Source of the DNA: Candidatus Omnitrophota bacterium | GTDB taxonomy: Bacteria; Omnitrophota; Gorgyraeia; Zapsychrales; Aceulaceae | Length of the DNA stretch: 64,000 nucleotides | NCBI GenBank assembly: GCA_029564765.1 | Contig: JAKQPK010000029.1 | Coordinates: 119 to 64,118, forward strand | Reading direction: 5' to 3' | In this document: positions 3,001 through 27,000 of the stretch, piece after piece | Layout of the letters: every line of letters begins with the position of its first letter | How positions within the stretch are numbered: the first letter of the stretch is position 1 | Notes under the pieces: generated by a model | Told to the model about the DNA's origin: nothing | Database searches by the model: none | Seen by the model: the letters and a program-made list of their open reading frames with translations, nothing else | Position numbers and translations under genes: made by a program

Positions 3001-6000
3001 CAAGAAAGAAGACTTTGAAAATCAAGCGGCTGATCTTCAAGAACAGATCTTCGGCTTCGCCGAACAGCACGAAGATTTCGTCAGCGAAGAAGATCGCTCT
3101 TTTGCCTACACCGTTTCTGTCTACAACAACGAAGTTGCCGGCAAGTGGTATTTCACCCGCGTTGCCAAGATCAAGAGATTGGCTGAGATCATCCGCGTGG
3201 CTTACAACGAGCTTTTGGCCAAGAGAGCAGGTGAGTGGCAGCAAGCTGGCGTTGCGACAATTTATGCCGATAGATTGTTAGGCGATGTCGTCAGCCGCGA
3301 GACCATGAGCGATATTTACGCCGCGACCATTTTAAAGAACGCAGGAGACCTATCTAACCTTAGCGCAGAAGTCGCTCAATTTGAAACCGTTGTCGCCATG
3401 ACGCTTGCTTCTAAGAATGTTTCCCGCAAGGCCAAAAAGCATTTCTTGAAGAATATTGAAGACGCTCTTAATTCACGACTTGGACAGGAATCTTTCAAGC
3501 TTGCCCGCAATGTAGCGATCGTTGTGATCGCGGTCGTTGTTGGCGGTCTTCTCTTATCAACATCAGCCTTCGCGCAAACAGCAACTACCACCAACAATGT
3601 CAACCTTGACCAGGCAGACACTCTTCAAGGTCTGTCCTTCAGCCATTCCTTTATCGGCGATACCACAAATGGCTATTATGCTCCGGTTGGTAAGTGGACA
3701 TCAAGGAATCCTGGCCAGAATACTTTAAGCGGTATCGTGATGGACGCGCAAAGCATTGGATTGATCCCGCAAGGCAATGTCATGAAGTATGTTGAAATTG
3801 TTGCCAAAGACAATCACATCAGAAATCCCAATGTTATCCGCGTTGGACAGAAGATCTGGATCCGATACGCCTTAGCAACGCTTACATCCGTGGTCCCGGC
3901 GCCAAGCAACAGGGTGCCGGTGAACAACAACGTGCCGGTCGAACAAAAAGTTGAGCAAGTTGTCCCTTCTGTTGTCAACGACACGATCGGCGCGGCAACA
4001 ACAACATTCGTCGTCACCGCTGACACGCTTGCACGAGCTGCTCAACCCACAACAGAAACAGCCGTTGTTAAGGCTGATGTAACATCTGTTCAGGCCCAGG
4101 CACCGCCGGTAGGATATACAGAAACGCGTGTCTCCCTCCAGGGTTATCAGATGTTCGTCAATGATTCCTCTTACTTTATCCGCGGTGTTACAGTTGATGA
4201 AAACTTCTCCATTAGCGATATCCACTATGTTCAAGCCTTAGGCGCCAATACTGTTCGTACGTACCAAGCGTATCCTTCTATCTTTAACAAGGCTACCTTA
4301 GATAGCTTAGCCAAGAGCGGTATTCGCGTGATCGTTGGCATCCCTGCCGATGCCGGTAGCGGTGCTCGTGTCAATATTAAAGACGGTACCTACAAAGACT
4401 TTATCCGTCAATACGGCAGTCATCCAGCTGTTTTAATGATCGAGTTCGGCAACGAGTACAATTATCATCCGGAATGGTTTAACAACAATATTAACAACTG
4501 GTACAGCATGCTGGAAAAGGCTGCTTCTGAAACAAAGAAGATCAATTCTAAGATCATTGTCGCTACAGCCCACGGTGAAGTACCGACATTTGATGTTGTT
4601 CAAAAAGTTCCTTCTGTGGATGTCTGGGGCTTAAACGTTTACCGCGGCACAAGCTTCGGCACATTGTTCCAGCAATGGGTGAACTTGACAACGCAACTAA
4701 ACCGCCCGATGCCGATGTATCTCGCTGAATATGGCTTTGATTCCCACAGATATGCTGAAGAAGGTCAGGCCAATGGCATTATGAGCTTGGCTCAAGAGCT
4801 TGAGAACAATAAAGATAAGGTCATCGGCGGAACAGCGATGAGCTTTAAGGATAACCGTAACAAGGGAAGCGAAGACGAAAATAGTTATGGTTTCTATACG
4901 ATTGATTTTAATGATCAGGTCAGCGGCGCTAAACAGGTTGTAGAAATTATTTCCAAGATTTGGGGCGGCAAGGGAGAGGTAGCAGTATTAACACAGCGAC
5001 AATTATTCCGCCAAGAAACAGAAGCAAAGGCCAAAGCCGCTGAAATGAGTATCGCCCAGTTCGACAGCACTGCCGCTGTTCGTGATTCGCTGCGCATCGA
5101 TTCGTTACAGCTTGTTAGCAAAAAAGACCTTGTTGATGCTCAGATCAACGCGCTCGCCGGCAATCCTGACAGTGTACTAAACGACCTAAGGCAGGTCTAT
5201 AGATATACAGGCGCTAGCAAGAACTTTGCTTGGCCGCTGACATTAAGCGCTGGCTACAACTACAACACAGGAAGCTTGATCAGCGTACCGTTTACCAAGA
5301 ATGGATTAGGGACCGTAAACCTTAGCATTAACAACGCGTTTGGCAATAGTATTAACTTCCTACAGCAAACAACAGGTCTTATGAACACAACGCTAACCGG
5401 TACAGCTTTGGAGATCGGAGTCGGTTATGTGGCGTATCTGCATGCTGCCATGGAGCTTCGCAACAGCATCATTTCAGCCGCGCATCAAGGTGATGGCGCC
5501 CTCGTCACAGGCCGCCGTATCAATGGCGCTCCTGTCTTAAGACCGGTCTTTTCTAAAACACATTACATGTATGAAAACAAGATCATTACCGATACCAACG
5601 ATGTCAATTCTTTTGCAGAAAGAAAAGACCGCTCCCACGTTTCCTTTAGGCCAGGACAATTCCTCTTTAATGATGTGATGCGCAAATATGTTCCCGAAGT
5701 CATTACCGGCATTACAGATGAAGTTTTCGCGCTGCCATTTGACATGAGTAAAGATTTTAATCTAACCGATTCTGCAAAGACAATGAAGGCAAAAACAGGT
5801 GTTCAGACCTTCTTCAGCGGACTCGTCAATAAAACTTTAGGATATGACCCTGCGATCGTTCCTGCTTACGCAAAGCCAAAATACGACGTCTGGGCCGTGA
5901 TCGGAGATAAGGAGCATGCGTTCGTCTATGACAGCGCCTTAACTTGCATGAACCCGAACCTGTATTACGTTATCGCGCGTGATAGCATCTACGCTGTCGG

Positions 6001-9000
6001 CTATGTGATCGATCTTCAAGATCCTATGCATCCTGTCGTTAAGGAATACTTCCGCACCCCTCGTTTCATTGACAGCTTGGACCGCACATTCTTTATCGAT
6101 TACAACCTTTGGTTAGAGCCAAAACAAGCCTACATCGTTCCAACCGGTTGGATGATCCAGAATCTGATCGATGCTTACAGTGTTCGCTCCAGCAAGCAGG
6201 CGATCGTTGCCGCTCAAGATCCTCGCAGTGGAAAAATTCTTAACACATATCATTTATCCCAATCCCCGTCTATTGAGCATCGCCCTGTTTATATGAAAAA
6301 AGGAACCATTGCTTATCAAGATTCTATTGTGATGGCACCTGTCTTTACGGATACGATCTTAGGTTCTTGGCCGAACGGACAGCCTATTTATCCTAACGCG
6401 ATCTTTAGCGAAAGCTGTGCCGCGATGAGTTATTTCTTCTATCGTCAGTCCGATGCCGCCACATGGAATGACCTGCAAGGTGATGTGATCGACCTTGCAA
6501 CAGGCAAAGCCACGCCAGTCATGGCTCATGATACAGTGACCTTTAAAGTGTTGCCTGGCGACCTAACGATCAAGACATTTGCTCAGGACACCATTCTACC
6601 TGCTGGATTCAAGGTCGCTTATCTTAACAACGATACGGCCATGAGCATTTTTGTTGCCAAACCTGTTGATATGCCCCAACCGCCGCTGGCACGCTTATTC
6701 ATCTATCCGGCAGGGCAGCAATACATTTATGATTCCGTTGAATTACGCAATCTTAACACTTATACCTTGAATGGTGTGACATATAAGCAGTTTGAGAATG
6801 GCCAGATCGCGCTTGTTGATTACAGCCCTAACGCCCAACGCCTTGACCTGCGTCACGTCAACGCTACGGTTATTTATGAAGATGGCACGATCAAGAACTT
6901 CACTAACGACAGCATTCCTGTCAATGTAAGCAAGAAAGAGATCCCTGTGGCTAAAGGGGAAGTGCCTTTAAGCGTTTCCATTCAGAATATTCCTGGCGAT
7001 CGTTTCGCGCAGCTGTCAGAAGCTTTAAATGTTTTAGGCATTCCAGGCGCTGACAGCATTGTCAATGACTTAAGACAAAAAGCTTTGGCTTTCGAACAAA
7101 GCACAGCTGCCTTGAGCCGCGAAAGCAACAATCTTCGCAACGCCGCCTTACAACGCGAGCAAGCCTATCAAATTTCCCGCGGCCTCAACCTCTTTACTCA
7201 AGGTCTTTATAAGATTGTCCAGTCCCTGGAAGAGCACAATACTAAGATCGACAACAAAGAGCTCCTTTATAGCTGGTTACGTCAGATATCTTTTGACATG
7301 GTTGCCGGATCTTTAGATCCTCAAGCAGATGCCAACGCCTTTTACAATACGATCATTGAAAGAATGAAAGAAAGCACTCCAGAAGATGTCATGTTCAATT
7401 CACAAGATTCAGTTTTCTTAAACGGCAAGAGCCTTTTCGCTTATTGGAAAGATATGGTTTTGGGTGCTGGCAACACAAAGATCGCTGACATGGACTCTCT
7501 TAATATCAAGTCTTTAATCACAGTCGCTGACGCGAACTCCCAGCTTGCTATTTTGCAAGGTATTGGCCAGCCAGTAACAGATCCTTATGGTATGGCTGTG
7601 AACGTCCCTTACGCGATCACACAGCAAGATACCGCTCAAACAGCCGCCAATGATCTTAATGGCATGATTACTTTGAACAATTACGACAGCCTCTTTAATT
7701 ATGTTCCTGCTGACCTGGCGGCAACGCTGCAGGCATGGAATTATTATTTGAGCCTTTATAATGATTCTATCCCTGTCTGGGACAGTATCTGGAATGCAAG
7801 GCTTCAACAGGCAACAGTGGCAGGCGATGCGGCGTGGATCAGCCTTTGCAACAACGCGATCGCGAACATTAATACCTTGAAGACCACCTTAGGCAATCCT
7901 AATGCCTCTGTACCGAATACCATGTTCTGGGCTTTATATCAGCTTCAGCTTCATTATAATGGTAATATTGTGCCGTTCTCAACACTCGCCAATATCTTTG
8001 CCTCTATTAATCAGCAAATGGCTAACTACTGGACAGCTCAGATCAGCCTTCTCAATCAAGGCGCTGCTTTGATTATCCCTAATTATTTAGGCCTCAACGC
8101 TGTAATTATTCCTTATTTTGCGTCTTATCCGATCGTAGACGATCCCAGCACGCCTAACGTTAACGAGGCTAAGTTTGATACAGGGGAAGACGATCCTACA
8201 ACACCTGTTGATGAATCCAAGATCTTTACAATTTCATTCATCAACCAGTATCTTTATGTTGACGACAATACACCCAATGCCCAATCAGTGATGGGTTACT
8301 TAGCCAGAATGGAAGGCTTTGTGGCTTGGTTAGAAGACATCTTGGCAGAACACACAGATCTCTGGCAAACACATCCTCAATATCAGCAGAATATCCAGAA
8401 TTTGATCACCGCTATCAAGAACGTCTGGGATCCTGATGCCGCAAACTATAGCTATTGGAGAGTTCACGGCATTCCAGAATTAGCCAAAGATTCTATCTTG
8501 CAAGCTGTGAATCAGTATGCAGAAAGCGGCGCCCAGATCGTTACTCGTAAAACAGATGCCCGCAACGCTCAAGTGACCGCGTATACAGACCTTGCCAATG
8601 CGGCCTTAGGATTTAAAGATTTCTTAGAGTTCTTCTACGATGCTGATAGCGGCAAGACAGCTGAATATGTCAGCTTCGCCGAAAAGCAGATCAAGCGTGC
8701 TTTAAAGACCGTTCGCCATTACAACTCATTTGCCAATCATCCTTTACGCAATCTTCTGCAGGCAGGCCAAACCGTAAATAGCAGCAGCAAAGATCACGCA
8801 AGACAAAAGGCTCGCCAAAACGCTTCTTATCAGCAGGCGGAAGTTCGATATGATCAGATCTTTGCCGCGTACGACAGCGCCTTCAGTATTTTTGCCAACG
8901 CCAAGAACGCTCATGAACAATTTGTTCTAAGTACGATCGACAGCTTGGGCCGCAAGGACAGCATTCAAGCCAAAGCCTTGATCCAGAACTATTTTGCCAA

Positions 9001-12000
9001 CATCAATATTGTTAAACCAGCCTTTATCATTAAAGGTGATCAGCTGATCTTTATCAAAGACGGCGAGCAGATCCCAATGGTTCGCGTCAATGGCCAAGCC
9101 CTCAGCAAATCTTCTGCTCAGTGGTCAGGCAACATTTCTGATATCTCAAAGATCAACGATGATAAAAAGTATGGCAACTTTACCGGCTTATCAGTATATG
9201 ACATCGTCAGGATGTCTAACGGCGCTGTGTCTATTGGCGCGCATGTCATCAACACACAAGCCATGGGCATCGAGAACCCTGCCGCGTTTAATCAGGTCCT
9301 CTTGTTCCAGGTCAGCGTTGATCCTAAGGAAGAGAATTGGGTATTTAATTTCGCGGGAGGCTCAAGCCAGAGATCGTTCTTTGAAGAGCAGTCCGGCAGC
9401 ACAGAAGAAAATCCGATCGGCGAAAATGTTCGCAAACAACACTATCTGATGATCTCTAATATAGGCTTTAGCTCTAAGGATGGGTCTTTCTGCGGCGCTG
9501 TCGCGGGTGTGGCTCAATTCTCGCTGGATGAGAAAAACAATGTCATCGGCGTGGTCATGGATCTGGATTATGAGATATCCAGACGTTTTGTTGCCACGTT
9601 TAATGGCGGCTTTGCCTACGGCAAGAAAGAAACAGATTATACCATCAACGTGATCGATCCTCTCACGGGCAACAGCTACGGCTCTTATCCTTATGTTCTA
9701 AAGTCCGAAGACCAATTTAACTTCCAGAATTTCACAGTTCACTTTAAGCCGCTTCAGGGCGACAACGCCAACAAGCTTGTTTTTGACCTTTCCTTTATCA
9801 ATGAAATTAAAGGTGTTAATGATGCTTGGGGTCAAGATCAAACAACAGCGCTTGCGGTTGGTGGCGGAACGACCTTAGGCCGTTTCCATTTTGAAGCAAA
9901 AACAACCATTACAGGAGAAAATCACCGTTACGGCGCTGTGGCTGGTGTCGCTTTAGATAAGGCCGGCACGTGCCACTTGAACGGCTTCTACAACTATATT
10001 GAAGGTGAGCAGGGCGCTGGCATCGGCTTTAACTGGGGTAATCATTTAAATGTCAGTGTTAAGACGAATTTCGATAAAGATCATCAACTTTCCGCGAACT
10101 TTGGGTACAAATTTGATAACGGCCTTGGCGCAGGCGCTCGCGTGATGCCCAGCAGCCAGAATTGGTTCGGCGCCGGCGTTTCTTATCCGATCCTCAATCT
10201 CTTCACCAAGAAAGCTCCTCAGGAGAGCAAGCTTGTCTCCCGGCCGTTCAGCGCGCGCGACGCTCAGATCGTCGGCGGCATCGTCAACGATACGATCAAA
10301 CCCGCTGAAGGATCCAAGAGCAATATTTTCAATGTTGAACTGCCTCAGTCTGTCGCTGCTGACAACGTTGTCCGCCAAGACGGCGTCAACGGAACTGTTG
10401 TTTGGGGTTTGCCGCCATATCAGAGAACGGCTGAAGGATTACGCGGCAACGGCCTTCTTCACACCTTTGACGGTTTGATGCCGCAAGTTTTGAAGGGCAA
10501 TATTTGGGACGGTAAACAAATCTGGACAATGAAAGGCATTACAGAGACTTTGATCGCGGACAGCCTTGGACATTTTAGACAGATGAACAACTTAGGGATC
10601 ACCAAAAAAGCTGACGGTTATTATTTCAAGACAGCCAACGGCACTCTTCAAAAAATTAGCGATCCTGACGGCTCAGCCTTGGTCGTCCTTCAGAATGTTG
10701 ATGAAAAGAACTATCGCGCAGACGTGGTTGGCGTTGTTGAGATCGGCCTTCGTTGGTTAGACTTAGAAGATGCTCTTCTTTCTGATCGTTTATATGTTGA
10801 TCGCCAGAACAACTACTACATTGTTAATGATGCTGCTCAGGCCCAGGAGGGATGGGAGCTTGTGGTCATGTTCGTTGAAGGCAATGACACTATCAATGGC
10901 CTTCCTTGGATCCCTGTTCGCAAAAGTGAATATTCCCCAGCTAATATTCGCGCAACTCAGAAATCCGGTTCTGGTTATTGGTGGCAAGATAAGAACGGGG
11001 ATAACCGTCAAGACCCTGTCAACGAGCCAACAGTACGCAAACCATGGAAGGTTACAGAGCGCAACAGTGAAGTTGAAGATCTTTTGATCAGAGGCTTTAA
11101 GCCGTATTATGAAGTTAAAATGATCGTTTCTGGGGAAAACAGGCGTATTTGGATGTCCGGAAGAGCTGTTGAAGATATTGATCAGACGTTCTACAGATCG
11201 CATCTTTTATTTATCGAGTACGATGCTTCCGCAAATGACGGCATCCGTCAGACATGGATCTCTTTGAGCGATCTCAATTCTGGAAGCAACCGTGCTTATT
11301 ATCAGAAGAAGATCTATGAAGAAGGCGCTATCTTGCAACAGATGGCTAAGAGTGGAGAGCAAGTTGCTCCTATCCGTTATTATTACCCCAACCAAATCTT
11401 TTCTAAGAGCAATATTTTAGATCTTAAGACCAACGTGACCCATGCAATGAACGCTCAGCTTGGCCAGGGAAGCTCTCTGTACAAGGTCGCTCGCATTGGC
11501 GATTACCGTATTAAAACCGTGGATGGTAAGGTTCAGCGATTCATTCTTTATCGCAATACAAGCTTCAATGGCGCGATCGTTGGCTATACCGCAACTGATG
11601 CTTGGGGCAAGGTCGTGGCGGAGTTTATGATGAAGAACGGCAACATGATCAAGGCTATTGTGAGCTTGGGTGAAAAAGCCTCTATCTTGAGCCAGCAGAT
11701 CCGCAGAGATTACGACCTTAAGGGTTTTGAAAAAGTTTCCCGTCTTTATGATCATTTTGATAACAAAGCCGCTGGAAATTATAATTTAAGCCACCAAGCA
11801 GGCTGGGCTGTGAATTGTGGAGAATACAATTTAAGGCTTTTAGATGGGCGGATCATTCCCTTTAATCTTATCAAACAGATTTCCATGAATGGTAGCTTGC
11901 AAAGAATGTTCGGTATCCAAAAAAATAATGAAGAGATCACGATCACTTGCGATGGTTCTGTTTTCCGTGTTGATCGCCAGAATGGCTCCGATTCTTATAT

Positions 12001-15000
12001 CGTAAGTTTTGATGGTAATAAGACGTATACCGTAGAATACAAGACGGCTGAAGGCCAAACAGTTTCTTTCGCGAGCCTTCCTAATAATTGGTCTTCAACA
12101 ATGCGCAATGTTTTTGCTCAAATTGCCAGAATACAACCACAGGCAAAGATTTACAATCCTGCTCAGCTAACTTGGCTAAGAGTAACGCGATTTGATAGCC
12201 AGCGTAATGAAGCTTTCCGCTATTATCATGCTTTTGCCGGCAACTTCAGTGAAGCATTAATTGAGCTCAACCATAGCCTTACAAAAGGATATGTGATCGT
12301 TAACATCGGACAAGGTTATGATCAGAGAGTCAACGATAGTACGGTGTATCATTGGCAAGGCCGTCAGATCTATTCATTTGAAATGACACCTAATGGATTA
12401 AAGGTCCTTTTGGAAAAATATGAAGCAGTTTCCGCACAGCAAAGCATTCTCGTTGACCTAAGAACGATCAACGATGGGAAGAAGGGTGCCATCGTTCGAT
12501 GGACAAACAAGCCTAGATCAGATGATGCTTTTGGCGATGCTTTTTATCAAAGCATTATTCAAAATTATAAACAGAAAGAAGGATTTTTGCCGATCGACTT
12601 CAATCGTGTTTATGATGCCAGAACCCTTGTTGAAAGCCTTTCTAATATCTCGTGGGATGCCTATATCGAAGTCCGTCAGACCGCCGATGGATATGAACAA
12701 AGATTAACCTATGAAGCTGATCCTTTGACCGGAGAAAAGGCCAGATCAGGAAATCTTATCGGCCTTCAGATCGTTTTAGATAATGAGCAGTGCGGCGTTA
12801 TCAACAGCGTTTACCGCGACATCTTGAATATTAACCTTCGCTACCATGAGCGATGGGCTGGCTTTGCTCCTGTTAAGCTTGATCGCTATGATAGGCGCTA
12901 TGGCCACATTGTTGAATCCAAAGAGGGCATCTTTGTTTTGCCAGCAGATTTCCGCACCAATACAGAATTCTTTAAAAATATCACAGAAAAGAACTACAAC
13001 TATCGTGTTGTGAATTCCTATGATCAGGATTATCAAATTTTAAAGAGCAGCATTGTTTATATTCGTCCTCAGGTCAATATGGAATGGGTGAAGGCTTGGG
13101 ATTTAGTTGTTGAAGACGAGATCGCAGCCGGCAATATCCAAAAAGTCAACATTGCCATGTTATTGAAGCAAGGCGAGATCAGAGACGCCTTACAAAAAAT
13201 CTATGCGCGACAGGGTGCTTATGGCGTTGATCTTTCAACAGTATTTATTCCATCAATCGTGACGACCATCGATGGCGTTGTGACAACTGATTACCGTATC
13301 CCTCATGATTATCAGGCAAGAAAGATCATCAGTGTTCGCGAAGAAGGCGGACGTATCTTAGAGATCATTGTTGCCAGTCAGTTTGATCCCAAAACAGGAG
13401 AGGTTATCAAATCATTCTCAGTAACGCCGAATTATAAGATCCGCGGTGTTTATGAGTCCTTGGAAGAGAACGCTGAGGATTATCGCCAAGGATTGGCTCA
13501 GCATACTGTCCAAGGCCTTATTGACAACGGCATCATGAAAGCATATAGCAAGAAGTCGAAAGAATTTTTGAATGTTCAGAATGCGAACATCTGGAACGAT
13601 CTTGCCAGGATCGGTGTCGCGCCTAAAACGCGTCCGATCGTTGTTCGGTTCACGCCACGTTTACTTTTAACAGACAAAGACGGAACCACAGACTACACAA
13701 CAAAAACAGGTCGTCCTACATATCAATATCTGCAGCCCAACGATGCTCGTGGTCGCTCGCTGGCTATCGCCTATCCAGATGGTAATTTAGAGCTTAATTT
13801 CTGGTGGATGGAAGCTGAAACAAAACATGTTACAAACGGCAACCAACACGAAGTTTATATGAGGCCTGGGATCCTTCCTGGCCACATGCTTATTGGTGAG
13901 GATGGTAAATTTAAAGCTTTTGAGATTTATAAAGGCGTTCGCCCTGAAGTCTCACAGAACAATGACATTAGCTGGCAAGACCAGCAAGAGAATGTCTTTG
14001 TTATGTCCCGAAGCGAAGACCAGCGCTTTGTTTTGACTGTTACGACACCTGGTAAAGATACTATTTCAATGAAGGGCAATGAATATCATGTTCTCGGTGA
14101 ACCTTATCGTCGCGAGATCGTTTTCTCAGCCGCTGGACAGCTCTTAGCTGAAAAATATTCCTTTATGCGCATGCAAGTTATGAAGGAAAACTTTGGCGTT
14201 GCCGTCAAGGATGTTGAAACAACCCTTTACGACATCACGTCTAATTATCGTAAACCGGTCGTTTCTTTCTTGGATGACGGAACGATCACAAAAGATTACT
14301 TGAAGATCGTATTTAGCATTGAAGAGAAGAACGGCATTTATTATCAGAGGACAATAGTCCTTGTCAATGAAACTGAAGGATTGGATGTGTCTAAGATCAA
14401 TCTTCAAGAATATTCTTATCTTGATGGCAAGATGGTGAACAAGGAACGCCCGAGCTTATTCATGTCTTGGCTCGAGAAAGCTGCTGCTTGGCGTAATATT
14501 GGTCTAGTTTTATTTGGCTATATTTTTGGAACGTTGGCCTTAGGCAAGATACTGGCCTGGATCGGGCAAGCTATGAGAGCCCGCCGTTCACGCCGCCAAG
14601 GCTTAGATGAAGTAGTTCTACAGCTTTCAAAAGAAACAATTCAGAAGATCTTAGATGAAGTACAGGCTTATTCAGATTATGGCTTCCAGATCGGTGTTGT
14701 TAAGGTTGTGAAAGAGCAGCTAGTTGCCTTATTGAATCGCAGACTAAGCGCTGGCGAGAAATTAAGCGACATCACAACTGAATATTTCTCTCGATTTAAG
14801 AATGTTTGGTTTACGCCTGTGATGAAGAAAGTTTTAAGCGCAGAGGAGTTCAAGATTTGGATCGAAAGAATTGATCAGTTCGGTGTCCATGAGATCTATA
14901 TCTATATGCTCACAAACACAGCTGGCGGCAAGCTGGCGAACGTTACCGCATCTGTTGATTTCTTTAATTTCTATAGAGGGGTTAAGCTTCTTCGAAGCGG

Positions 15001-18000: not shown

Positions 18001-21000
18001 GATCCGCAAATTCTTGATCATTTTCCCCAAGGCCGCTGTTTCTTATATGTCCTTAGTTTATACAGCGTTCTCTGTAGGTATGAAAAAAGCAATGAAGAAT
18101 AATGGTGATTATGTAAAAACAGGGCGTCGACCTGGCCGAGAACATATGGCGCCGTTTAAGCCTTTGTCAGCAATTGAACTTTTTGATCAGGATGGAAATC
18201 CAACAACAGAAACAAAAGAAGAAATCCAAGGACAAAGAATTGGCGATGCAAGTGATCTTTATGCGCAAATTAATTTGCCGGGCTTCCAGTGGGTGATCAT
18301 CGCTGTCTTTACTATTGCTGGCGGCATCTTCTTGTGGCAAAGCCCTTCAATGATTTGGTCTTTATTCCCGATTGGTATGATCGTTTGCGCTTTGTTTGCT
18401 CCGTTCATTTTGAATGCCGGTTCGTTACCGTTTACTACTGGTGTAAGATCCTGGATTCATCAGCATAGCGCTGATTGGAAAGACTTCCTTAAGAAGATTC
18501 ACGAACAATATCTTGAGGAAGTTAGCATTATGAAGCTTAAGAAGAAAACAAATTTTTACATTGAGAAAAAAATAAAAGACGTTGGTAAGAAAGCAAAAGA
18601 TGATTTAAAGAAGGGAATCCAAGGAGAAAAAGAAGAAGCCCAGGCAAAGAAAGCATTGCAAGATTATCAAGATGCTCAACAGGCAAGAAAGCAGGCGCTC
18701 GGAAAAATTAAAGTTTGGCAAGGAGCTCTTGCTTGGCTTGTCGTCACGACTATTGGCATCTTAACCGTTGTTTTTGCCGGAGGAAAAGTCTTCATCATCT
18801 TAGCCGCAACACTTTTGCTCTATACACTTTCTACGTTTGTCACCGGAACCAAAAGCATAGAAACATATTTAGCTGGTAAAAAGAAGTTTCCTTCTGTTGA
18901 TCAAGATAAAAATCCTTTTTATGCAAAAATTATTAAAGCACGTATTGTCATATATCAATGGGTTATCAAAAACCATATTTTTAAAACTATTTTAAAAACA
19001 CGAATTTCGATATCTAAATGGATTATCAAGGTCAGAGAACTCTTTAATTTTTATGTTTCTGGAACAGCTATTATGATAACGCTAACCATCGTCGGTTTTA
19101 TAAGCATCATTTTTGCTGCCCCTTATTGTATGATTGTAGGCTTAAAGAAAACCCGAATTTTAAAGAAAGGCTTTAATCCAAAGAATCGCGGAGCAGCTAA
19201 CGAGAATTCTTCAAATGATCCCCGTAACAGCCCCCGCAACAACCCGCCGGTCAACGAAAATAAGAAAGCCGTTTATGAAGAAGAAACAGAAAAAGCCGCT
19301 ACTGAAAAAGCTGAGCAAGATAGAATTGCTGAAGCTGCCCATATCGCCCAAGAGAACCGCAAAGCCCAAGAAGCCGAAGCTGCTCGCCTTGCTCAAGAAA
19401 AGGCAGATCAAGAAAAAGCCGCTCAAGCTGAAGCCGCCCGCGTGAACGGCCTTCTCGCTCAGATCAAGAATTTTATTCAATCCAGCGAAGTTACGGATGC
19501 CTTAATGAGCGATGCCGATCAGCGCGTTAGCGAGGCTGCTTCGCTTAAGAAGCAAGAGTTAAGAAATGCTGAGGCTCAGGCTGAAAAAGAAGCTGCTGAA
19601 GCCGCCCGCCTTGCTGATGAAAAGGCCGCTCAAGAAAAGGCAGATCAAGAAAAAGCCGCTCAAGCCGAAGCCGCCCGCCTTGCTGAAGAAAAAGCTGAAG
19701 CTGATCGTATCGCTGGTGAGAAAGCGGGCCAAGAAGACACAGAAACGACTCTTAACGCCCAGCAAGCCGAAGCTGATGACCGCATCGCTGAAAATAAACT
19801 TAAAGCCAATAAAGCCATAGATTCTCTTCAAAAATTGATCGATCAATATAACAATCTGATCGAGAAGTTTCGCGCTGGCAATGATCTTGCGACCGCGCAG
19901 AAATATGAACAGCTAAGAGATCAAGTTCAGGGAAAGATAGAAAAAATACGCAATGAAAATAACGGCACACTATCTTCCGCCCTTAAAGCAAATAACAGCT
20001 CAAGCTCTTCTTCGGTCAGATCGTGGAAAAATATCTTCAACAGAAATAAGATTTCTGCGCAAGATCCCGCAGAGCAGTCGACAGATAGATCAGCCGAAGA
20101 CTCTATCCAAGTTCCTGAATTTAACGAAAATGGACCTGTCAAGGTAACGCCAGAAGCAGAGGAATTGGAAGACCTGATCAGATCATTAGTTGATCAATAT
20201 AAGAACTATCTTGCCATTGTCGAAGATGTTAAGGCTCGCCTGCCGCAATTAGAGGCTTTGAGAGTTTTGTTGACCGAAACGACAAAGCAAGTGGAAGAGA
20301 CCCAAGAACTTGCGATGGGCAATGAAGATCCTGAAACGATATCAGCGATCTCAGAGGCAGTTCTTGAGATGATCAGCACGACCGAGACCTTAAGAGCGGA
20401 TCTTACAAATTTCGAAAATGAAATTGTTACTTTAAAAGAGCAGGCTGGCCAGCGATTGAACGCAATGGGCGACCTGTACGAAGACATCGCGCAAAAACAA
20501 AGATTTTATCAAGAGAAGAAAGAACAAGCTTCTCGCGCGCAGCAAAAAGCCCAAGATGCTCTGCGTAAGGCTCATGATGAATATAACACTGCCAACAACA
20601 GCCAGCAGACAGCCATAAGTCTTGTAGGCGAAAAAGAAGCTGCCGCAACAAAAGCCCAGGAAGCGATCAACGTTCTATTGCAGAGCATTCAGACAGCCAA
20701 AGAATGGCTCGATCCTTTGAAAGAAGAACTCCGATCCCTTGAGCAAAGAATACGTGACGAAAAAGCATTAGAAGCTGGTCGTCGAAGCCAGAGGGAAACC
20801 TTCGAAAATAGGGCTGATCATCTAGAAAATAAAAAGAATGTATTGCAAGCAGAATTAGATGCGATCGACCAGCAGCTTAACGATGTTTTGAGATCTTTAT
20901 CTGAAGCGCGTGCGAAAGAGGCGGAAGCGTTGCTTCTGATGACCACGAAAGAGGCTGAAGAAAACGACGCCCGTTTAGCCGCAAAGGCCGCGCAAGCATC

Positions 21001-24000
21001 TTGCAAAAAAGCCAAAGAAGAAGCTTTAGCGCAAAGACGTAGCGAAGAATTAGCCCGCACTCTTGCCCAAGATGCTGAGATCCAGGCTCAAGGATTTGAA
21101 GAAAATGAAAATGATGCCAGAAGCATAGCAGAAGCTAATGAACAAAAAGCTGAAAGCACCTCCAGCGACTATCGATCCGTACAAAAACTTGCCTCTGACA
21201 AAGAAAGCGCAATGTTGCGCGAACAAGCTGATGAGCAAGAAGCTACGCGAAAAGTTTATGATCTGACAGAGCAAAAGCTTCAGCTGGAAAAACAGGCGCA
21301 ACAAGCACAAGCAATTATTGCTCAAAAAGAACGCGAAGCTAAGGCCTATCGGACAAAAGAGCAGAACCATAGAATGCTCGCGGAGCAGAAAGAAAAAGAT
21401 ATAGAACAGCAAGAAAAGATCAAGCAAGAAGCTCGCGAGCGGATGATCAAAGAAGGTTTGCAGGCAAGATCTGCCTCTTTATGGGAGCAGCATGAAGAGA
21501 TCAGGAAGCTTCTTGCTTCTGCTGAAAACGATAAAGGAACGCTGCAAAGAACAATCGACGACAATGTTTTGTCTATCGGTAAGCTTAAAGAAGAGCAAGC
21601 AAAGAATAAAGAGAGGCTATCTGATGTTTTGCAAGAGATAGAAGCTGTTCGCTCTAAGATCCAAGAAAGCCGGAAAAAGATCTATGATGCCAACAATGGC
21701 TATGGGGCTTCTTTAAAAGAAAGAAATTCACAGGCCGTTGCTTCAGAAAGCGGCATGGACGAGTTGTTGTTCTCGCAAAGAACCCTTTTAACCGAGAAAC
21801 AACATTTAGAGGAGAGGGACACAGAAATTAGCCGAGCGCTTGGAGGCTTGCAAAATAGTCTAACAAAGCATCGCATTGCTGTTGTCTCGCTTAATAAGAA
21901 AATTGTTGAAAATAGCCCGAAATTTAGGCGCATACGAAAAGAAGCAGAAAGCGTAGATCAGCTGATAACAGACCTGCAGAGCGCGATAGAAAGGGCCAAT
22001 GCCGCCAGCACAGAATATGTTCTTGCTGCTCAGAAAGAACGCAGGCAGGAAGACGAAAATCGTCAGTTGGCAATAGGGATTGAAATAGAAATAAAGAATG
22101 CAAAGTCTTCTAAAGACCAGGCAAAAAAGATGATCGAAGACCTGGAACAGCAGATCCTTGGCAAGAAGGCCGCGCAAGAAACAGCAAAGAGCAGATTCTT
22201 TGAGCTAAAAAGCTCTTTTGGATCTTTGCAAGCACGTGCTCGCGCCTTGGGCGAAGAGAATAAGGGCGCGTCTGAGAAGGCGAAGGCCGCGCGCGATCAG
22301 GAAAAGCTATTTTGTCAGAAAAAAGAAGAATCTTTGCATGTGGCCCGCCTAAAGCGTCAAGAGGAGCAAGAAGCTCGTCAGGAAGCGGAAGAGCAAGAAG
22401 CGCTTTCCCACAAGAAAACACAAGAGCACAATCTGTTTTTAGCTAAAGCTCGGGAAGCAAAGGAGATCTCTCAGCAGCAAGCCCAGATCGTGGAGGCGCA
22501 GCAAAAGAGGATCCTTGAGCTTGAGATCCTTCAGCAGCAGTTCAGCGAGAGCTCTTCTAAGAAGCGTTCTCAGGTAGGACGGCTAGCGCAGATCCTCAAT
22601 CTTTTATTCAAGGAGATCAACGAAAAGATCCTCAACGAGGAGAATCTGAGACAATCTTGGCAAGAATATGAGCAACAATACAATACACAGCAGACTGTTT
22701 ACGCGTCTACGTCAAAAGAGAAATTTGACGCTGAACAAGAAGTCCTTAAGCAACAAAACATCCTTCAGCTATCACAGCAAGAGAAGATAAGGCAGGAAAC
22801 GATCGCTTATGAGGCTCAGCAAATAGCCGAACGATCACAGACAGAAATAGATCATCTGAGCGCAAAGATCTTGCGCGCCCAACAGGATGAGATCCGCTTT
22901 GGGCAGGTCATGATCGACATAGAAAGGCTGCATACGGAAACGACACGCCAATGGCTTGCAAAGATCTCCGATGAGATCAAAAAAGACCGATCACAAGGCC
23001 AAGGCGCTTCGCCGATATCTGAGCCTTTCATTCCCGTGCCGTCGATAACACCAGCGTCTTCGATCTTGTTGCCGAGTATTTTAATGCCAACATTTATAGT
23101 GATCCCAGGCTTTTTAAGCCGTTCGTACCCATCCAATAGGGGCCAAGGCGTTTTAAGTAATGATGCTATTCGCGCTTGGCTTGCCGAAAAGATTTCTGCA
23201 CCAACAAAAGCTGTCAAAGAGAACCAGGGGTTGGTGTTCGGAAAGCCGTTGTCGCAATCGACAACGGCTTTCTCTTTGCTTCGCCCCAGGGAAAATTTGG
23301 TCAGGGATGAGATTTCTTCACAAACAGGCCGCTGTCAGAATCTTCCTACCGTGGCAGGAAGCAAGATTTCTTCAACAGCGGCCTTTGCTTTGATCGATAA
23401 GTCGTCGAAGGCTGACCTTCTTTCCGTGGCTGGAACGGGCACCGATGTGGCGACTTTAAATTTTGCTAACAGGCCGTTATTAGAAACATCTTCTTTCCGT
23501 GGTCCCGCTCCTCTCATTCAAAATTTTGTTTATCAAGGAAAAGGAAGCGGTATCCAGATTTCCTCTCGAAATAAATTTAAGGGGAATCTGGTCTGGAACC
23601 GGGTTTCGAGCACGGCCTGTTCTTTATTTTTCAGTGGTTTCAATTCGACTTCTAAATTTTTCTCACAAAACAGGCCGGCGCTTAATCCTTACCGTGGCAG
23701 GGAAGATTTTAATGCACCGGCTTCTGTTTCTTGTTCATTGATAAATATTTTAAGAACGGTCTCGATCTGTTTCTTGGCCGCCGCTATCTTGACTTTTGCA
23801 TCTTGCAAGAAAGAGGAAGAAGACCTGATCAGCCAAGGCATTTGGCCGGTCAGCGTGACGACCCAGAATAACCAGATCTATGTTGATGGCACGCAGTTTC
23901 GGATCAAGGGCCTCACAGCAGACCAAAAACTCTTGACCATGGATGACCTCGCGCAGATCAAAAAGCTTGGCAATGACATTACCTTGCGCGTTTATCTGCC

Positions 24001-27000
24001 TGTTGTGAACAAAGAACTTTTAGCAAAAGCTGCCCAAGAGAATATTAAGCTTATTATCGTTATTCCTTATGATATTAAAGCCGGATCTGTTTACGCTCTT
24101 AAAGACGGTTTTTATGCGGCTTATATCGAAGACTATAAAAAATACGCTGCTATTTTAATGTACGAACTTGGCAACGAATATAATCTCCACCCTGAATGGT
24201 TCAACGGTGACATCAATGTTTGGTACGCAGCCGCGGAAGAGGCTGCTCAAGTGATCAAATCGATCGATCCATCTCGTCCAGTCTCGATGTCTTTTGGCGG
24301 TTGGGCTCCAACCCCTGATATTATCGCCCAATGTCCTTCTGTTGACGTCTGGAGCTTAAACGTTTATCAAGGCTTAAGCTTAAGCGGTGTTTATTCCGCT
24401 TGGCAATCCTTAGGCGTCAACAAGCCGATGTATGTCGGTGAAACAGGCGCGGATTCTTGGAATGCTACAACAAATCAAGAAGATGAGGCTGCACAGGCGT
24501 ATGCCGCTAAAACGCTTTGGCAGGAATATGCGCAGTCCTACACAAATGTTTGCGCTGGCATAACCTTCATGACCTTGCAAGACAATCCTACCTTAACTCA
24601 AAGCCTTCCGTTGTCTGTTTATCCGGATAACACGGCCAATGAATGGGCATGGGGCTGGCTCAGATCTAACGGAACACCCAAAGCTGTTGTCGATACCATG
24701 GCCAATGTGTGGGCGGGGAATGGCGGTAAGAAAAATATAAAAATTAAGCTGGCCCCCAACGAGAAGATTGAAAAAAAGAACAGCAATAAAAAAGTATCGT
24801 CCGCTATTATTTTAGATATTTATGATCCAGGCTTGCTGCTTTTGACAGTTGTTTTTTGGGGGGGTGCTATTATTTTTGTCATTTACCACATATTGAAGTT
24901 TATTGCGAGCACTATACAAGAAGTCGTAAGAACGCGTCAAAACAAAAGATCGCAAGCAAATCAGCAAGGAAAAGATGAGCTAAAAGAGATCTTTTTGTCA
25001 GCTTTAAGGGATGTTGACGAGGGTAAAGGAAGCGGAGAAGTTAAAGAAGCTTTTATTCGTAATCGTCAACAGTTAAACCAATTATTTGCCGAAAACAGCA
25101 TTATTTATCGTGAGCACACCTGGGGGACGATGATGGTTACCCCAGATGGCGTATACAATAATGAATATGATTTCCCACAAAGATACTCTAACACAAAAGA
25201 GCGAGAGGAGCTCGTAGGCAGCAAGAATATTGAAGATTTTGGTTATCAAGATTCCTTTTTAGGGGACGAGAAAGCTGGTATAGAGATCACGTATCGACTA
25301 TCTCGTAAAATAAACACTGCGAAGCTGAAAGATTTCTTTCTTCAGTTTACTCGGGAAGCGGCGATAATATTTTCCTATATTCCCGGAGAACCTTCTGAAG
25401 CCGTTTTTTCTTTTCAGCTTCTTTTAGACGAAGCTCTTGTAAAAGCTGCGGAAATCTACCAGCAAGGTTTTCATTTCAAAATTGATATAGACGAGGCAAC
25501 AGAGGAGAGAGGAAGATATCATTCTTGTACAGATGCAAATAGTAATCATTGCTGTGGTGAACCTTATGCTTCAGGATGCCCAGGATCAGGATATTGGGTT
25601 GTTACGGGGATCTCCACTCGTGTTACTAAAAACGGCGAGATACATAAGACAAAAAAGACCTCTTCTTCAACCCTTAGCCAGCGCAAAGCCCAAGAGATAT
25701 TATTCTCCTTTTTAGCGCAGGAAGACCAGCTTCCTTCTGATCCGGCTGACTTGTTGTTATTGTTAGGCAACAGCCGCTTGGAAACAGTTGAATTAGCTGC
25801 ATATATATACAATCAAGGATTAGCTAGAAATATATTTGTTACCGGCGGCATTGGAAGGGAAACACCATTTCTCGTTAACAACATCAAACGATCTGGAAGA
25901 TATTTAGTCCAGTCGAACCAGCCTGAGGCGTACATATTTAAGGATGTTCTTGTCGCCAATGGGGTCCCAGAAGGCGCTATTTTTGTAGAAGACCTATCAA
26001 CTAATTCAAAAGAAAATATTATTTATAGCAAAGAGATCATTGAGGATCGAAATATTGCGCATGATGTTGTTATTCTGGTCCAGCATCCTTTGATCCAGAA
26101 AAGAGCGGTGGCCACATTCAAACGCTGGATGAGCGATGATGTTGTCATAAGCCGTACGCCTTCCTGGAGAAACATTTGGAATAGACTGACAACAGAAGAG
26201 CAACGAGATTTCACAAAGATGGCTTTAGGAGAAATTGATCGACTTCAAAAATATGGTCCCAAGGGCTTTGGCGATATTGCTTATGTCAAGATCCCTTCCC
26301 GGGTATCGGAAGCATATTCTATTTTAAAAGGAAAGATTTCTTCATCTATTTCTTCTTTTCGTTTTTATTTTAAGTTATCTCTGCTTGTCTTAAGTCTGGG
26401 CCTTTTTACTGCCTGTTCTTCTCGCGATCAGAACGAGAAGAACAATCAGGCGGAACAATCGGTACGCCAGTGCCCACAGATGAAAGTCGAAGACAGGGCA
26501 AAGCTTTCCGATATTCTTGAGCGCGCAGGGTATTCTGGCGCGGCTAAGGATCAGCTGATTAATGAGTTTGCAATACTTTTCCAAGAGATCAACTTTGAGC
26601 GCTTCCAGAAAGAATTACAAACCGAAGATCCTGAAGATCTGGAAAAAGCCATCAACGAACTTATCAGCGTTCTTAAGGGAAAAGGATATTTAGACACTTC
26701 CAATCCCAAGACATTGCTGAAGCTTTTAGTCAACGGTCTTAATCCAAGAGGCGAAGATGTTTTTAAATTGTTGGACGAGTCTAGCTTGAGCAACGAAGTC
26801 AAGACTTTAGAAAAAGAAATCCTTGTTGCTTGTTCTGCTCAATCCCAATTAGCATATATTCTTCTGCGCTTAGCTGATATATCTGCAATTGGAATTCTTT
26901 CAGATAATCCACATCTTTCAAAAGCCGGGCATGCTTATGTCATTATAGAAACAAGGAGCGGACGGTTTATTTTTGTAGATTTTGTAAATAGATTTGCTCG

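Follow-up and report, generated by a model that had tools for sequence, protein, structure and literature searches.

Two clan GH-A glycosidase modules with internal signal-like elements accompany an FKS-type glucan synthase module in a giant Omnitrophota reading frame

We analyzed a 64,000-nt stretch of DNA (hereafter the window) from a Candidatus Omnitrophota bacterium (assembly GCA_029564765.1, contig JAKQPK010000029.1, positions 119 to 64,118) that carries two related glycoside hydrolase (GH) modules of clan GH-A, each preceded by a signal-like element, and, between them, a module resembling the FKS/GT48 beta-1,3-glucan synthases. A six-frame check of open reading frames (ORFs) found that the window is one forward-strand frame (nt 2-64000) of 21,333 codons without a single stop; the remaining five frames hold 738-1581 stops each. 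Because the window is a single open frame, both GH-A modules are domains of one giant protein. Two NCBI entries labeled as partial Candidatus Omnitrophota proteins correspond to it: one (P0001) equals the window sequence from aa 8008, within module 2, onward, and the other (P0121) matches the glucan-synthase region with 100% identity over 99% of the query. Giant ORFs with many transmembrane (TM) segments are a known Omnitrophota trait (10.1101/2023.11.21.568195; 10.64898/2026.06.07.730766; PMC10066038), and the stop-free frame and these identical proteins agree with the giant-protein setting assumed in the original prediction, which had been made from the sequence letters. The features discussed below are collected in Table 1.

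The two modules share a set of ordered motifs. GNEYN(Y/L)HPEWFN begins at aa 1483 (nt 4448) and again at aa 8057 (nt 24170), 19,722 nt apart, and is followed by VDVW(G/S)LNVY (aa 1539 and aa 8114) and by a nucleophile motif, which is AEYG in the first copy (aa 1575) and GETG in the second (aa 8146). All of the collinear motifs that had been quoted at a distance of about 19.7 kb were located in the window; the core of the first was correct, whereas the residues given before its G were slightly wrong and are in fact I-E-F and Y-E-L. Aligned pairwise by BLASTP, the modules are collinear, with 33% identity across 302 aa (E=7e-52). Searching the DNA of the window with a degenerate pattern for D[VI]WxLNVY gives two sites, both in the modules, with none expected from 100 shuffles; a family hidden Markov model (HMM) run over all six frames finds exactly the two modules; and in a chunked self-comparison of the window they form by far the strongest internal paralogy. 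The putative acid/base and nucleophile are E1485 (nt 4454-4456, in GNEYN) and E1576 (nt 4727-4729, in AEYG) in module 1, and E8059 (nt 24176-24178, in GNEYN) and E8147 (nt 24440-24442, in GETG) in module 2.

With both modules as queries we found 1,125 relatives, mostly standalone Bacteroidota proteins of 330-420 aa with weak Pfam GH2_C or GH72 matches and, in some cases, tails of the type IX secretion system (T9SS). The modules belong to a large uncharacterized bacterial family. Both glutamates are invariant in a 36-sequence family alignment, and profile columns R79, N139, E140, Y202, E226, Q244 and E303 are retained in both modules; in total, 24 columns are invariant in this alignment and are kept in both modules by construction. 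The codon-usage frame scores of the modules lie at the 91st-96th percentile.

The AlphaFold2 (AF2) model of module 1 (pLDDT 82, pTM 0.84) comprises eight strand-helix units. In the model, N120-E121 follows strand 113-118 (strand 4) and E212 lies in strand 208-213 (strand 7), so that it shows the features of clan GH-A (the 4/7 superfamily): a (beta/alpha)8 fold, an N-E pair after strand 4 and a Glu on strand 7. A Foldseek search with this model returned 620 matches at E<=1e-3, and the best 50, those listed, are all GH-A-type barrels. The structure comparison suggested in the original prediction thus recovers, for module 1, a (beta/alpha)8 barrel with both glutamates at the strand 4 and strand 7 positions, and together with the 33% identity (E=7e-52) it upholds the proposal of a paralogous clan GH-A pair.

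The nearest characterized enzyme is GH158(Pro) (PDB 9ORO/9P25), the best match by phmmer at 5.7e-8 and 5.5e-10 with modules 1 and 2 and at 4.7e-14 with the family profile; it is also the best Foldseek match (E=1e-15, TM-score 0.63-0.65, 20% identity). The phmmer alignment of module 2 (E=5.5e-10) pairs both glutamate motifs, and the HMMER alignment to 9oro places LGNEY on LGNES and VGETG on VTEFG. The NEY and E(Y/T)G glutamates of the modules thereby fall on the motifs containing Glu143 and Glu229, the catalytic residues of GH158(Pro) (PMC13195107). Ranked behind it are GH2 barrels, GH157, BuGH158, GH72 Gel4/Gas2 and GH5; similarity to BuGH158 reaches 2.8e-4 with module 2 and 9.6e-6 with the profile, and the GH2 barrels reach 2e-11. 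GH5 or GH72 had been proposed as the closest families, a placement that calls for correction. For GH72 (Pfam PF03198), module 1 scores 23.9 bits, under the 25.9 cut-off and over model positions 46-114 of 314, and module 2 has no match; the GH72 structures Gas2/Gel4 are found by sequence at E=0.009-0.05 and GH72 by Foldseek at about 4e-11. For GH5 (Pfam Cellulase, PF00150), module 2 gives a marginal, partial match (26.4 bits against 23.5, model 105-255 of 272) and module 1 none, and GH5 structures rank below GH158, GH2, GH157 and GH72. Pfam GH2_C is weak for both modules, and the Pfam and NCBIfam scans returned no match to a GH158 model, NCBIfam giving weak GH2-type matches. Pfam by itself is thus ambiguous. 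On these similarities we file the modules under clan GH-A, with GH158 as the nearest characterized family by a small margin over GH2, GH157 and GH72.

The genomic context of the standalone relatives provides clues to the substrate. In Tenacibaculum tangerinum, the relative P8625_02440 (P0036) lies in a locus ordered SusD-GH16-GH17-[P0036]-GH30-MFS-GH17-LacI, and another relative (P0006) neighbors T9SS-tailed GH16 and GH81 genes. According to the literature, laminarin polysaccharide utilization loci (PULs) usually contain GH16_3, GH17, GH30_1, GH149 and GH158, and both of these loci are laminarin-type; the surroundings of a third relative (P0012) gave no such clue. The top folds GH157 and GH72 Gas2/Gel4, like GH158, are beta-1,3-glucan enzymes. 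Since the loci are laminarin-type and the nearest folds are GH158, GH157 and GH72, beta-1,3-glucan is most likely the substrate class of the family. We also note a close standalone relative (P0041, L032 2680-3669) that is 42-50% identical to module 1, the value varying with the alignment used, and lies on a phage-like contig, which also carries a terminase and an M15 peptidase.

Between the two modules lies the FKS/GT48-like synthase module. It consists of an N-terminal TM cluster (aa 5117-5362), a glycosyltransferase (GT) core (aa 5413-5957, nt 16238-17872) and a C-terminal TM cluster (aa 5970-6373), and a crude hydropathy scan shows peaks on both sides of the core, which would place it between two TM bundles. 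The Pfam match (PF02364) scores 250.3 bits against a cut-off of 37.2 over model positions 2-509 of 819, and phmmer aligns the region to residues 749-1317 of yeast FKS1 at E=2e-37. The UDP-Glc-binding and catalytic residues of FKS1 are Y849, E851, K1082, N1085, D1102-A-N and E1221-D1222 (PMC12715860); in the phmmer alignment all of those listed are matched in the window, in LYEEP, GQGKPFNQN, DMN (D1102-x-N) and NEDIF. FKS1_dom1 (PF14288) was not detected in the window by Pfam, and NCBIfam leaves the FKS region unmatched.

A scan of species-representative genomes yielded 31 related FKS loci (L001-L031), nearly all inside long open frames. We discarded one, from a "Gammaproteobacteria" metagenome-assembled genome (MAG; L029, CALOCH010000001.1), as a mis-binned eukaryotic contig: it carries MAP65/ASE1, FKS1_dom1 and a full-length FKS (E=6e-188). 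The other 30 come from Omnitrophota or PVC-labeled MAGs, plus one contig binned as Methanosarcinales, and one of them (L003) is from an Omnitrophota single-cell genome. A block of about 2,200 aa (window aa ~4200-6400) is conserved among the FKS loci. The contig labeled "Methanosarcinales archaeon" (L031, JAIWAR010000013.1) has an Omnitrophota-type FKS-like module in an open frame of at least 6,123 aa; it may be epibiont DNA co-binned with its host, such archaea being reported prey of Velamenicoccus. Searching the literature for GT48 enzymes in bacteria, or for a glucan synthase in Omnitrophota, gave nothing relevant among the searchable papers, in which the pairing of Omnitrophota with "glucan synthase" is absent. 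According to term searches that did not include internal cleavable-type signals or fossil gene boundaries, FKS, GT48 and callose are unmentioned in the 2026 giant-gene preprint (10.64898/2026.06.07.730766), and the retrieved passages of 10.1101/2023.11.21.568195 contain no glucan synthase or GH158-type domain.

Each GH-A module is preceded by a signal-like element, as had been anticipated; the sites are AFA↓Q before copy 1 and the lipoprotein-like FAS↓C before copy 2. Element 1 has the n-h-c pattern of a signal cut by signal peptidase (SPase) I (K-LAR-N, VAIVVIAVVVGGLLL, STSAFA↓QT) at an internal rather than N-terminal position (aa 1166), and a cut at this site would make Q1192 (QTATTTNNVNLDQADTLQGLSFSH) the first residue. 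Element 2, also internal, has the lipobox-like T-F-A-S-C, with a non-canonical F at -3, A at -2, S at -1 and C7935 at +1. A simple n-h-c scan of the 21,333 aa found four elements, two of which are these. The PT-rich linker described ahead of copy 1 is present as a V/P/T/A/Q-rich stretch. For the LysM-like stretch before it, a Pfam similarity to PF01476 does exist (E=1.5e-3), but it is below threshold and covers only the C-terminal half of the model (positions 23-42 of 43); an AF2 single-sequence model of this region (aa 1193-1300) has pLDDT 39.6 and is uninformative. We also observed a third internal signal-like element, RRFVLTTIVLIAMSVTSLFA↓QA (nt 31427-31492, aa 10476-10497), followed by tandem unannotated paralogous domains of about 195 aa (nt 31547-32131 and 32423-33001; 24% identity, E=2e-9).

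Counterparts with the same order of signal, linker and GH module occur elsewhere. A partial marine-sediment protein (P0002) has GAFA↓K, a linker and a GH module about 52% identical to module 1. In a metagenome scan, a 169-kb contig (L083) has GAYA↓QG (that is, KKAVIVTSVLVALGIGSGAYA↓QG), and a 182-kb contig (L102) has RILAVLAFLVLPAFISA↓CAGEK with the lipobox I-S-A-C, each followed by a linker and then the GH module; both modules lie inside open frames that exceed both ends of the fetched DNA, and in L102 a segment resembling a carbohydrate-binding module (CBM) follows the GH module. The LysM-like stretch is absent from all three. Among the standalone relatives, 102 of 119 begin with a secretion signal directly ahead of the barrel, which suggests that the signal-plus-barrel unit is ancestral and was retained when it became internal.

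From these features we infer a topology. Elements 1 and 2 would start translocation of the domain downstream of each, and cleavage by SPase I or II is possible at these sites. Module 1 heads a segment of about 3,640 aa free of any hydrophobic helix in a Kyte-Doolittle scan until aa 4833, and the predicted helix that closes this segment (aa 4833-4851) falls within the block conserved with other Omnitrophota FKS loci (aa ~4200-6400). Module 2 is on a loop of about 340 aa, closed by a TM helix at aa 8267-8295. The GH modules are thus predicted to lie on the side of the membrane at which an FKS-type channel would release glucan. In a second lineage (L016), a GH-A module lies about 440 aa after the FKS block, bracketed by two TM helices; KKYKW precedes the first of them and SRRHGRRQARPARR follows the second, and RRHGRRQARPARR likewise lies C-terminal to the second bracket helix. 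By the positive-inside rule, this GH module is a clear extracytoplasmic loop.

Table 1. Features of the window (nt and aa numbering of the window; all on the forward strand)
Feature	nt	aa	Strand	Remarks
Part of giant Omnitrophota ORF	2..64000		+	Stop-free; extends past both window ends
Sec/SPase I-type signal-like element 1	3497..3577	1166-1192	+	KLARN-VAIVVIAVVVGGLLL-STSAFA↓Q
LysM-like stretch, weak	3698..3865	1233-1288	+	Pfam 18.9 bits, cut-off 20.9
V/P/T/A/Q-rich low-complexity linker	3866..4111	1289-1370	+	Coding-frame score at 86.8th percentile
GH-A module 1	4112..5041	1371-1680	+	Family HMM score 327, E=7e-99
First predicted TM helix after module 1	14498..14554	4833-4851	+	Kyte-Doolittle scan; closes helix-free segment
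FKS/GT48-like beta-1,3-glucan synthase module	15350..19120	5117-6373	+	Pfam Glucan_synthase E=5.4e-74
Low-coding-signal spacer, stop-free	23240..23737	7747-7912	+	Codon-usage frame score 0.077
Perfect 14-15 bp stem-loop, terminator-like	23241..23272		+	465 nt upstream of signal 2
Lipoprotein-type signal-like element 2	23738..23806	7913-7935	+	L(TTG)-INILR-TVSICFLAAAIL-TFAS↓C, then KKEEED
GH-A module 2	23822..24724	7941-8241	+	Family HMM score 375, E=1.6e-113
K-rich 25-aa tether and TM helix	24725..24886	8242-8295	+	Closes module 2 loop

Pairs of a synthase and a cognate periplasmic hydrolase are well known in bacteria, for example BcsA/BcsZ, and PslG, PelA, AlgL and PgaB are further such hydrolases. 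Taking the synthase, the signal-like elements and the laminarin-type context of the relatives together, we give about even credence to the reading that the two modules are beta-1,3-glucan hydrolase or transglycosylase domains, exported and tethered to the membrane, whose most probable target is the polymer made by the FKS-like synthase of the same protein. In this proposal, retaining clan GH-A (beta/alpha)8 glycosidase domains would be set within a giant multi-pass membrane protein, and the internal signals would act as start-translocation or signal-anchor elements that place the barrels outside the cytoplasm. Module 1 would stand at the head of an exported segment of about 3,600 aa and module 2 on a loop of about 340 aa between two TM helices, and SPase I or II may cut at the elements. 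The modules would then cleave or transglycosylate beta-1,3-glucan outside, the likeliest substrate being the polymer extruded by the FKS-type module. Such an arrangement would parallel the hydrolases of bacterial exopolysaccharide synthases and the fungal pairs of FKS and remodeler.

Several findings weigh against this reading. Similarity to GH158 is remote (about 20% identity), and its profile margin over the GH2 barrels is modest (55 against 46 bits). The GH158 barrel carries a C-terminal eight-stranded immunoglobulin-like (Ig-like) domain (PMC13195107), and no domain of this type follows the barrel of either module: after module 1 comes unrelated sequence and after module 2 the K-rich tether of 25 aa and the TM helix, while the standalone relatives are about 335 aa long or carry a T9SS tail instead. 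Because of the low identity, the small margin over GH2 and the absent Ig-like domain, we do not claim membership of GH158. In addition, both modules are missing three loops whose conservation among the PUL-type enzymes exceeds 90%, namely CYxPVxKGS after strand 1, DEWWKAG after strand 8 and, in the next loop, GGWAPNSSGVPYD; module 2 additionally lacks the His and Glu of TAHGE. The window modules are therefore atypical family members, and their mode of action, activity or specificity may differ. The topology derives from a crude hydropathy scan and motifs, and around module 2 the charges on either side of the TM helices give an ambiguous picture. Finally, a GH-A module lies within 10 kb of FKS in only two of the eight lineages with enough downstream sequence (the window and L016), a scope that excludes module 1, which is 12 kb upstream of the GT core and beyond the fetched flanks, and the L016 module has R for the N of the N-E motif.

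We also considered whether FKS-GH synteny is conserved across Omnitrophota, and this is not supported: the GH-A profile run over the 31 FKS loci matched in L016 only, and Pfam found no GH of any family near FKS in L008 and L004. In the L016 module (13098-14000), GREDG replaces GNEYN, and this module next to an FKS unit may be catalytically altered. Outside the FKS loci, a 441-kb contig (Ga0247841_10000018; L075 1-6844) has two further GH-A family modules that are 32% identical and separated by about 550 aa. They share a single open frame, which spans at least 2,281 aa, with Ig/fn3-like and CBM-like segments around them and no internal signals.

The original prediction had seen the modules as consistent with a role in digestion. 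In such a role, surface modules of laminarinase type would break beta-glucans of prey, host or environment independently of the FKS-type module. The standalone relatives are indeed catabolic, belonging to laminarin PULs or to clusters of T9SS glucanases; most lineages do not conserve the FKS-GH linkage; a CBM-like segment follows the L102 module; and Omnitrophota giant proteins have been proposed to degrade prey surface polysaccharides, their peptides rising upon attachment. In contrast, a short loop between two TM helices suits action of module 2 on the surface of the cell's own membrane, the modules have lost loops that the catabolic enzymes conserve, the window contains no uptake genes, and the same polypeptide includes a beta-1,3-glucan synthase that appears catalytically complete. 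To our knowledge, the known prey type, Methanothrix, has no beta-1,3-glucan, which also counts against digestion. This role is an option, but because an FKS-type synthase, missed in the original prediction, lies between the copies, processing of self-made glucan is at least as likely, and we regard digestion independent of the synthase as a real but minority possibility. A substrate other than beta-1,3-glucan, such as a polymer of the prey wall or capsule with the LysM-like segment targeting GlcNAc-containing walls, appears improbable to us. Such a substrate would suit the weak LysM-like match ahead of module 1, the divergence of the active-site loops from the PUL enzymes, the M15 peptidase near P0041 on its phage-like contig, and profile similarities to GH2 and GH5 that nearly equal that to GH158. 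However, the nearest characterized small single-barrel relatives (GH158, GH157 and GH72) all act on beta-1,3-glucan, the LysM match is sub-threshold and has no equivalent in P0002, L083 and L102, and we know of no peptidoglycan hydrolase family in clan GH-A.

Two further explanations concern whether the modules act as enzymes of the giant protein at all. They might be decaying relics, remnants of fused genes kept open by selection on the giant frame and now serving as non-catalytic spacers or binding domains. The lost loops and residues, otherwise highly conserved, the missing Asn of the N-E motif in the L016 counterpart and the many stretches of low coding signal in the giant ORF would all suit decay, but the barrel predicted by AF2 is confident, in coding-frame score the modules reach the 91st-96th percentile, and 24 invariant columns, including both glutamates, are kept, in this last case by construction; we find this explanation distinctly improbable. 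Least probable of all, in our judgment, is separate expression as small secreted proteins from internal promoters or starts, such as the TTG at nt 23738. That codon followed by INILR, an h-region and a lipobox would make a perfect N-terminus for a lipoprotein precursor, and a strong terminator-like hairpin lies 465 nt upstream. Yet neither signal has a sigma-70-like promoter or a purine-rich Shine-Dalgarno sequence upstream, signal 1 has no suitably placed start codon before it, and a search for internal promoters found none beyond shuffle expectation. Moreover, the spacer of about 166 codons remains stop-free despite its low coding signal, which suggests that read-through is selected.

The history of the two modules may differ from the internal duplication that had been inferred from their shared motifs. 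On profile columns they are 36.6% identical, which brings them no nearer to one another than to standalone enzymes from other phyla (medians 36.5% and 34.1%); 52 proteins resemble module 1 more closely than module 2 does. In neighbor-joining (NJ) trees, modules 1 and 2 and P0002 (plus P0041, L083 and L102) form a sub-clade with weak support (34-68% bootstrap), and a sister grouping of the two modules has 22-28%. An internal duplication is therefore not shown. A recent duplication can be dismissed as well, as DNA similarity is limited to 19-57 nt at conserved motifs. We also rejected a split into two orthologous groups, one with SPase I-type and the other with lipobox-type signals (2% and 0% bootstrap). 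Signal type does not track the tree: L083 and L102, whose signals differ in type, group together at 62%. The base composition gives no sign of recent horizontal transfer (module GC 0.456 and 0.468 against 0.448 for the window).

The region upstream of module 2 suggests another origin. It resembles a fossil gene boundary and contains, in order, a hairpin, a spacer, a TTG codon and a complete lipoprotein-type signal. The hairpin is the sole perfect short-loop stem of at least 14 bp in the 64 kb (-37 kcal/mol, z=-6.9), and the spacer scores at the 0.8th percentile of windows of equal length. In two other FKS loci (L008 and L017), the interval from the FKS block to the RelA/SpoT block is about 1,400-1,850 aa without a GH, compared with about 6,200 aa in the window. 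Because of the hairpin, the spacer, the TTG with its signal and the shorter GH-less interval in these loci, module 2 is best read as a lipoprotein gene captured in frame. Thus, the source of at least module 2 was probably an independent lipoprotein gene taken up in frame rather than a copy of module 1. Further troughs in the frame score occur along the ORF (aa 7611-7968, 8431-8530, 8944-9087, 9789-9893, 10130-10288, 10375-10482, 11340-11809, 11919-12018, 12244-12396, 15406-15505, 15991-16179, 19734-19888 and 20919-21033), several of them directly before modules (TPR, signal 3, RelA/SpoT, CheR and T2SSE). These troughs would be consistent with a giant gene that arose as former genes and their spacers were joined in frame.

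The remainder of the giant frame is diverse. The stretch between module 1 and the first TM helix (nt 5042-14497, aa 1681-4832, about 3,150 aa) has no Pfam match and no hydrophobic helix and is N/A/G/S-rich; aa 2901-3427 and aa 4200 onward are conserved in other Omnitrophota FKS loci. After module 2 (window ~25760-27700), the Pfam matches are DUF218 (aa 8587-8722) and TPR repeats (aa ~9079-9230). Two TM-containing segments that bracket the module 2/DUF218/TPR region, nt 23012-23593 and nt 28934-29386 (aa 7671-7864 and 9645-9795), show weak paralogy to each other (26% identity, E=6e-7). Pfam modules of cytoplasmic type follow at ~37500-63500: RelA/SpoT (~aa 12523), GT1 (~13483), alpha-amylase (~14537), a glycogen-synthase-like GT5+GT1 module (aa 14867-15340), HAD (aa 18084-18345), phosphoribosyltransferase and PRPP-synthetase-like domains (18557 and 19314), a nucleotidyltransferase (18886), CheR (aa 19878-20077) and a weak T2SSE ATPase (~aa 21102).

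Three features make this locus noteworthy: an FKS-type synthase in a bacterium, signal-peptide-like elements at internal positions and a fossil-like gene boundary. FKS/GT48 synthases are known from fungi and plants, and a bacterial one is undescribed in the searchable papers. The synthase context shifts the question from digestion of prey to whether the cell makes and remodels its own beta-1,3-glucan. If the more speculative polyprotein reading given further below is correct, Omnitrophota would make a coat containing beta-1,3-glucan, and the lineage-wide clade of FKS-like modules, known from 30 loci of which one belongs to a single-cell genome, would comprise the first bacterial relatives of eukaryotic GT48, with a bearing on the origin of FKS and callose synthases. 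The internal signals and the fossil boundary suggest that giant genes grow by in-frame capture of neighboring genes, and both also hint at how giant products could be passed across the membrane or processed into fragments. As giant Omnitrophota proteins are largely unannotated, modules of about 300 aa with intact catalytic dyads offer an experimental handle.

Among known systems, the GH158 endo-beta-1,3-glucanases (BuGH158, PDB 6PAL; GH158(Pro), PDB 9ORO/9P25) share with the modules a clan GH-A barrel and a retaining Glu/Glu pair in LGNE.../...E.G motifs, and laminarin loci hold both GH158 and the standalone relatives of the modules. In contrast, the family of the modules has its own signature GNEYNYHPEWF, about 20% identity to GH158 and no Ig-like domain, and the window modules lack several family loops and are internal domains of a giant membrane protein. 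The standalone secreted or lipoprotein enzymes of Bacteroidota laminarin PULs (~330-420 aa, for example P0036) belong to the family of the modules, with 35-41% identity, the same catalytic motifs and a signal peptide directly ahead of the barrel. They are, however, encoded by separate small genes of catabolic loci, whereas in the window an ORF exceeding 21,333 codons carries the signal-plus-barrel unit as an in-frame fusion, and they possess the CYxPVxKGS, DEWWKAG and GGWAPNSSGVPYD loops that the window modules lack. The giant proteins with many TM helices of the "Archaeovorin" type resemble the window in their stop-free ORFs of tens of kb, their many TM helices and the enzyme domains, glycosyl hydrolases and transferases among them, that are dispersed along them.

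The hydrolases that accompany synthase-dependent exopolysaccharide systems of bacteria (BcsZ with BcsA, PslG, PelA, AlgL and PgaB) likewise cut the polymer of a neighboring synthase from the same encoding unit; they are separate proteins of other families (GH8 for BcsZ) working with GT2 synthases, whereas the window fuses clan GH-A domains with a GT48-like module. Fungal FKS1 (GT48) with its GH72 Gas/Gel or GH16 remodelers similarly pairs a membrane synthase with extracytoplasmic GH-A or GH16 enzymes, has a cytoplasmic GT core, and shares the FKS catalytic residues with the window module; Bgs3-Ghs2 is described in PMC13612389 as a fungal "synthase-remodeler module". The window differs in being bacterial and in carrying synthase and glycosidases in one polypeptide. 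Moreover, assignment of its GH modules to GH72 fails (sub-cut-off, 69 of 314 model positions), FKS1_dom1 was not detected in its synthase module, Rho1 is not expected, and the Pfam match covers positions 2-509 of 819. More speculatively, and in our view rather unlikely, the locus could be a bacterial counterpart of the fungal wall-building machine, with an FKS synthase and exported GH158-like remodelers made as one polyprotein that was built by in-frame capture of whole secreted-enzyme genes and is cut or threaded at internal SPase I/II sites; cutting at internal signal sequences would then be a feature shared with viral polyproteins.

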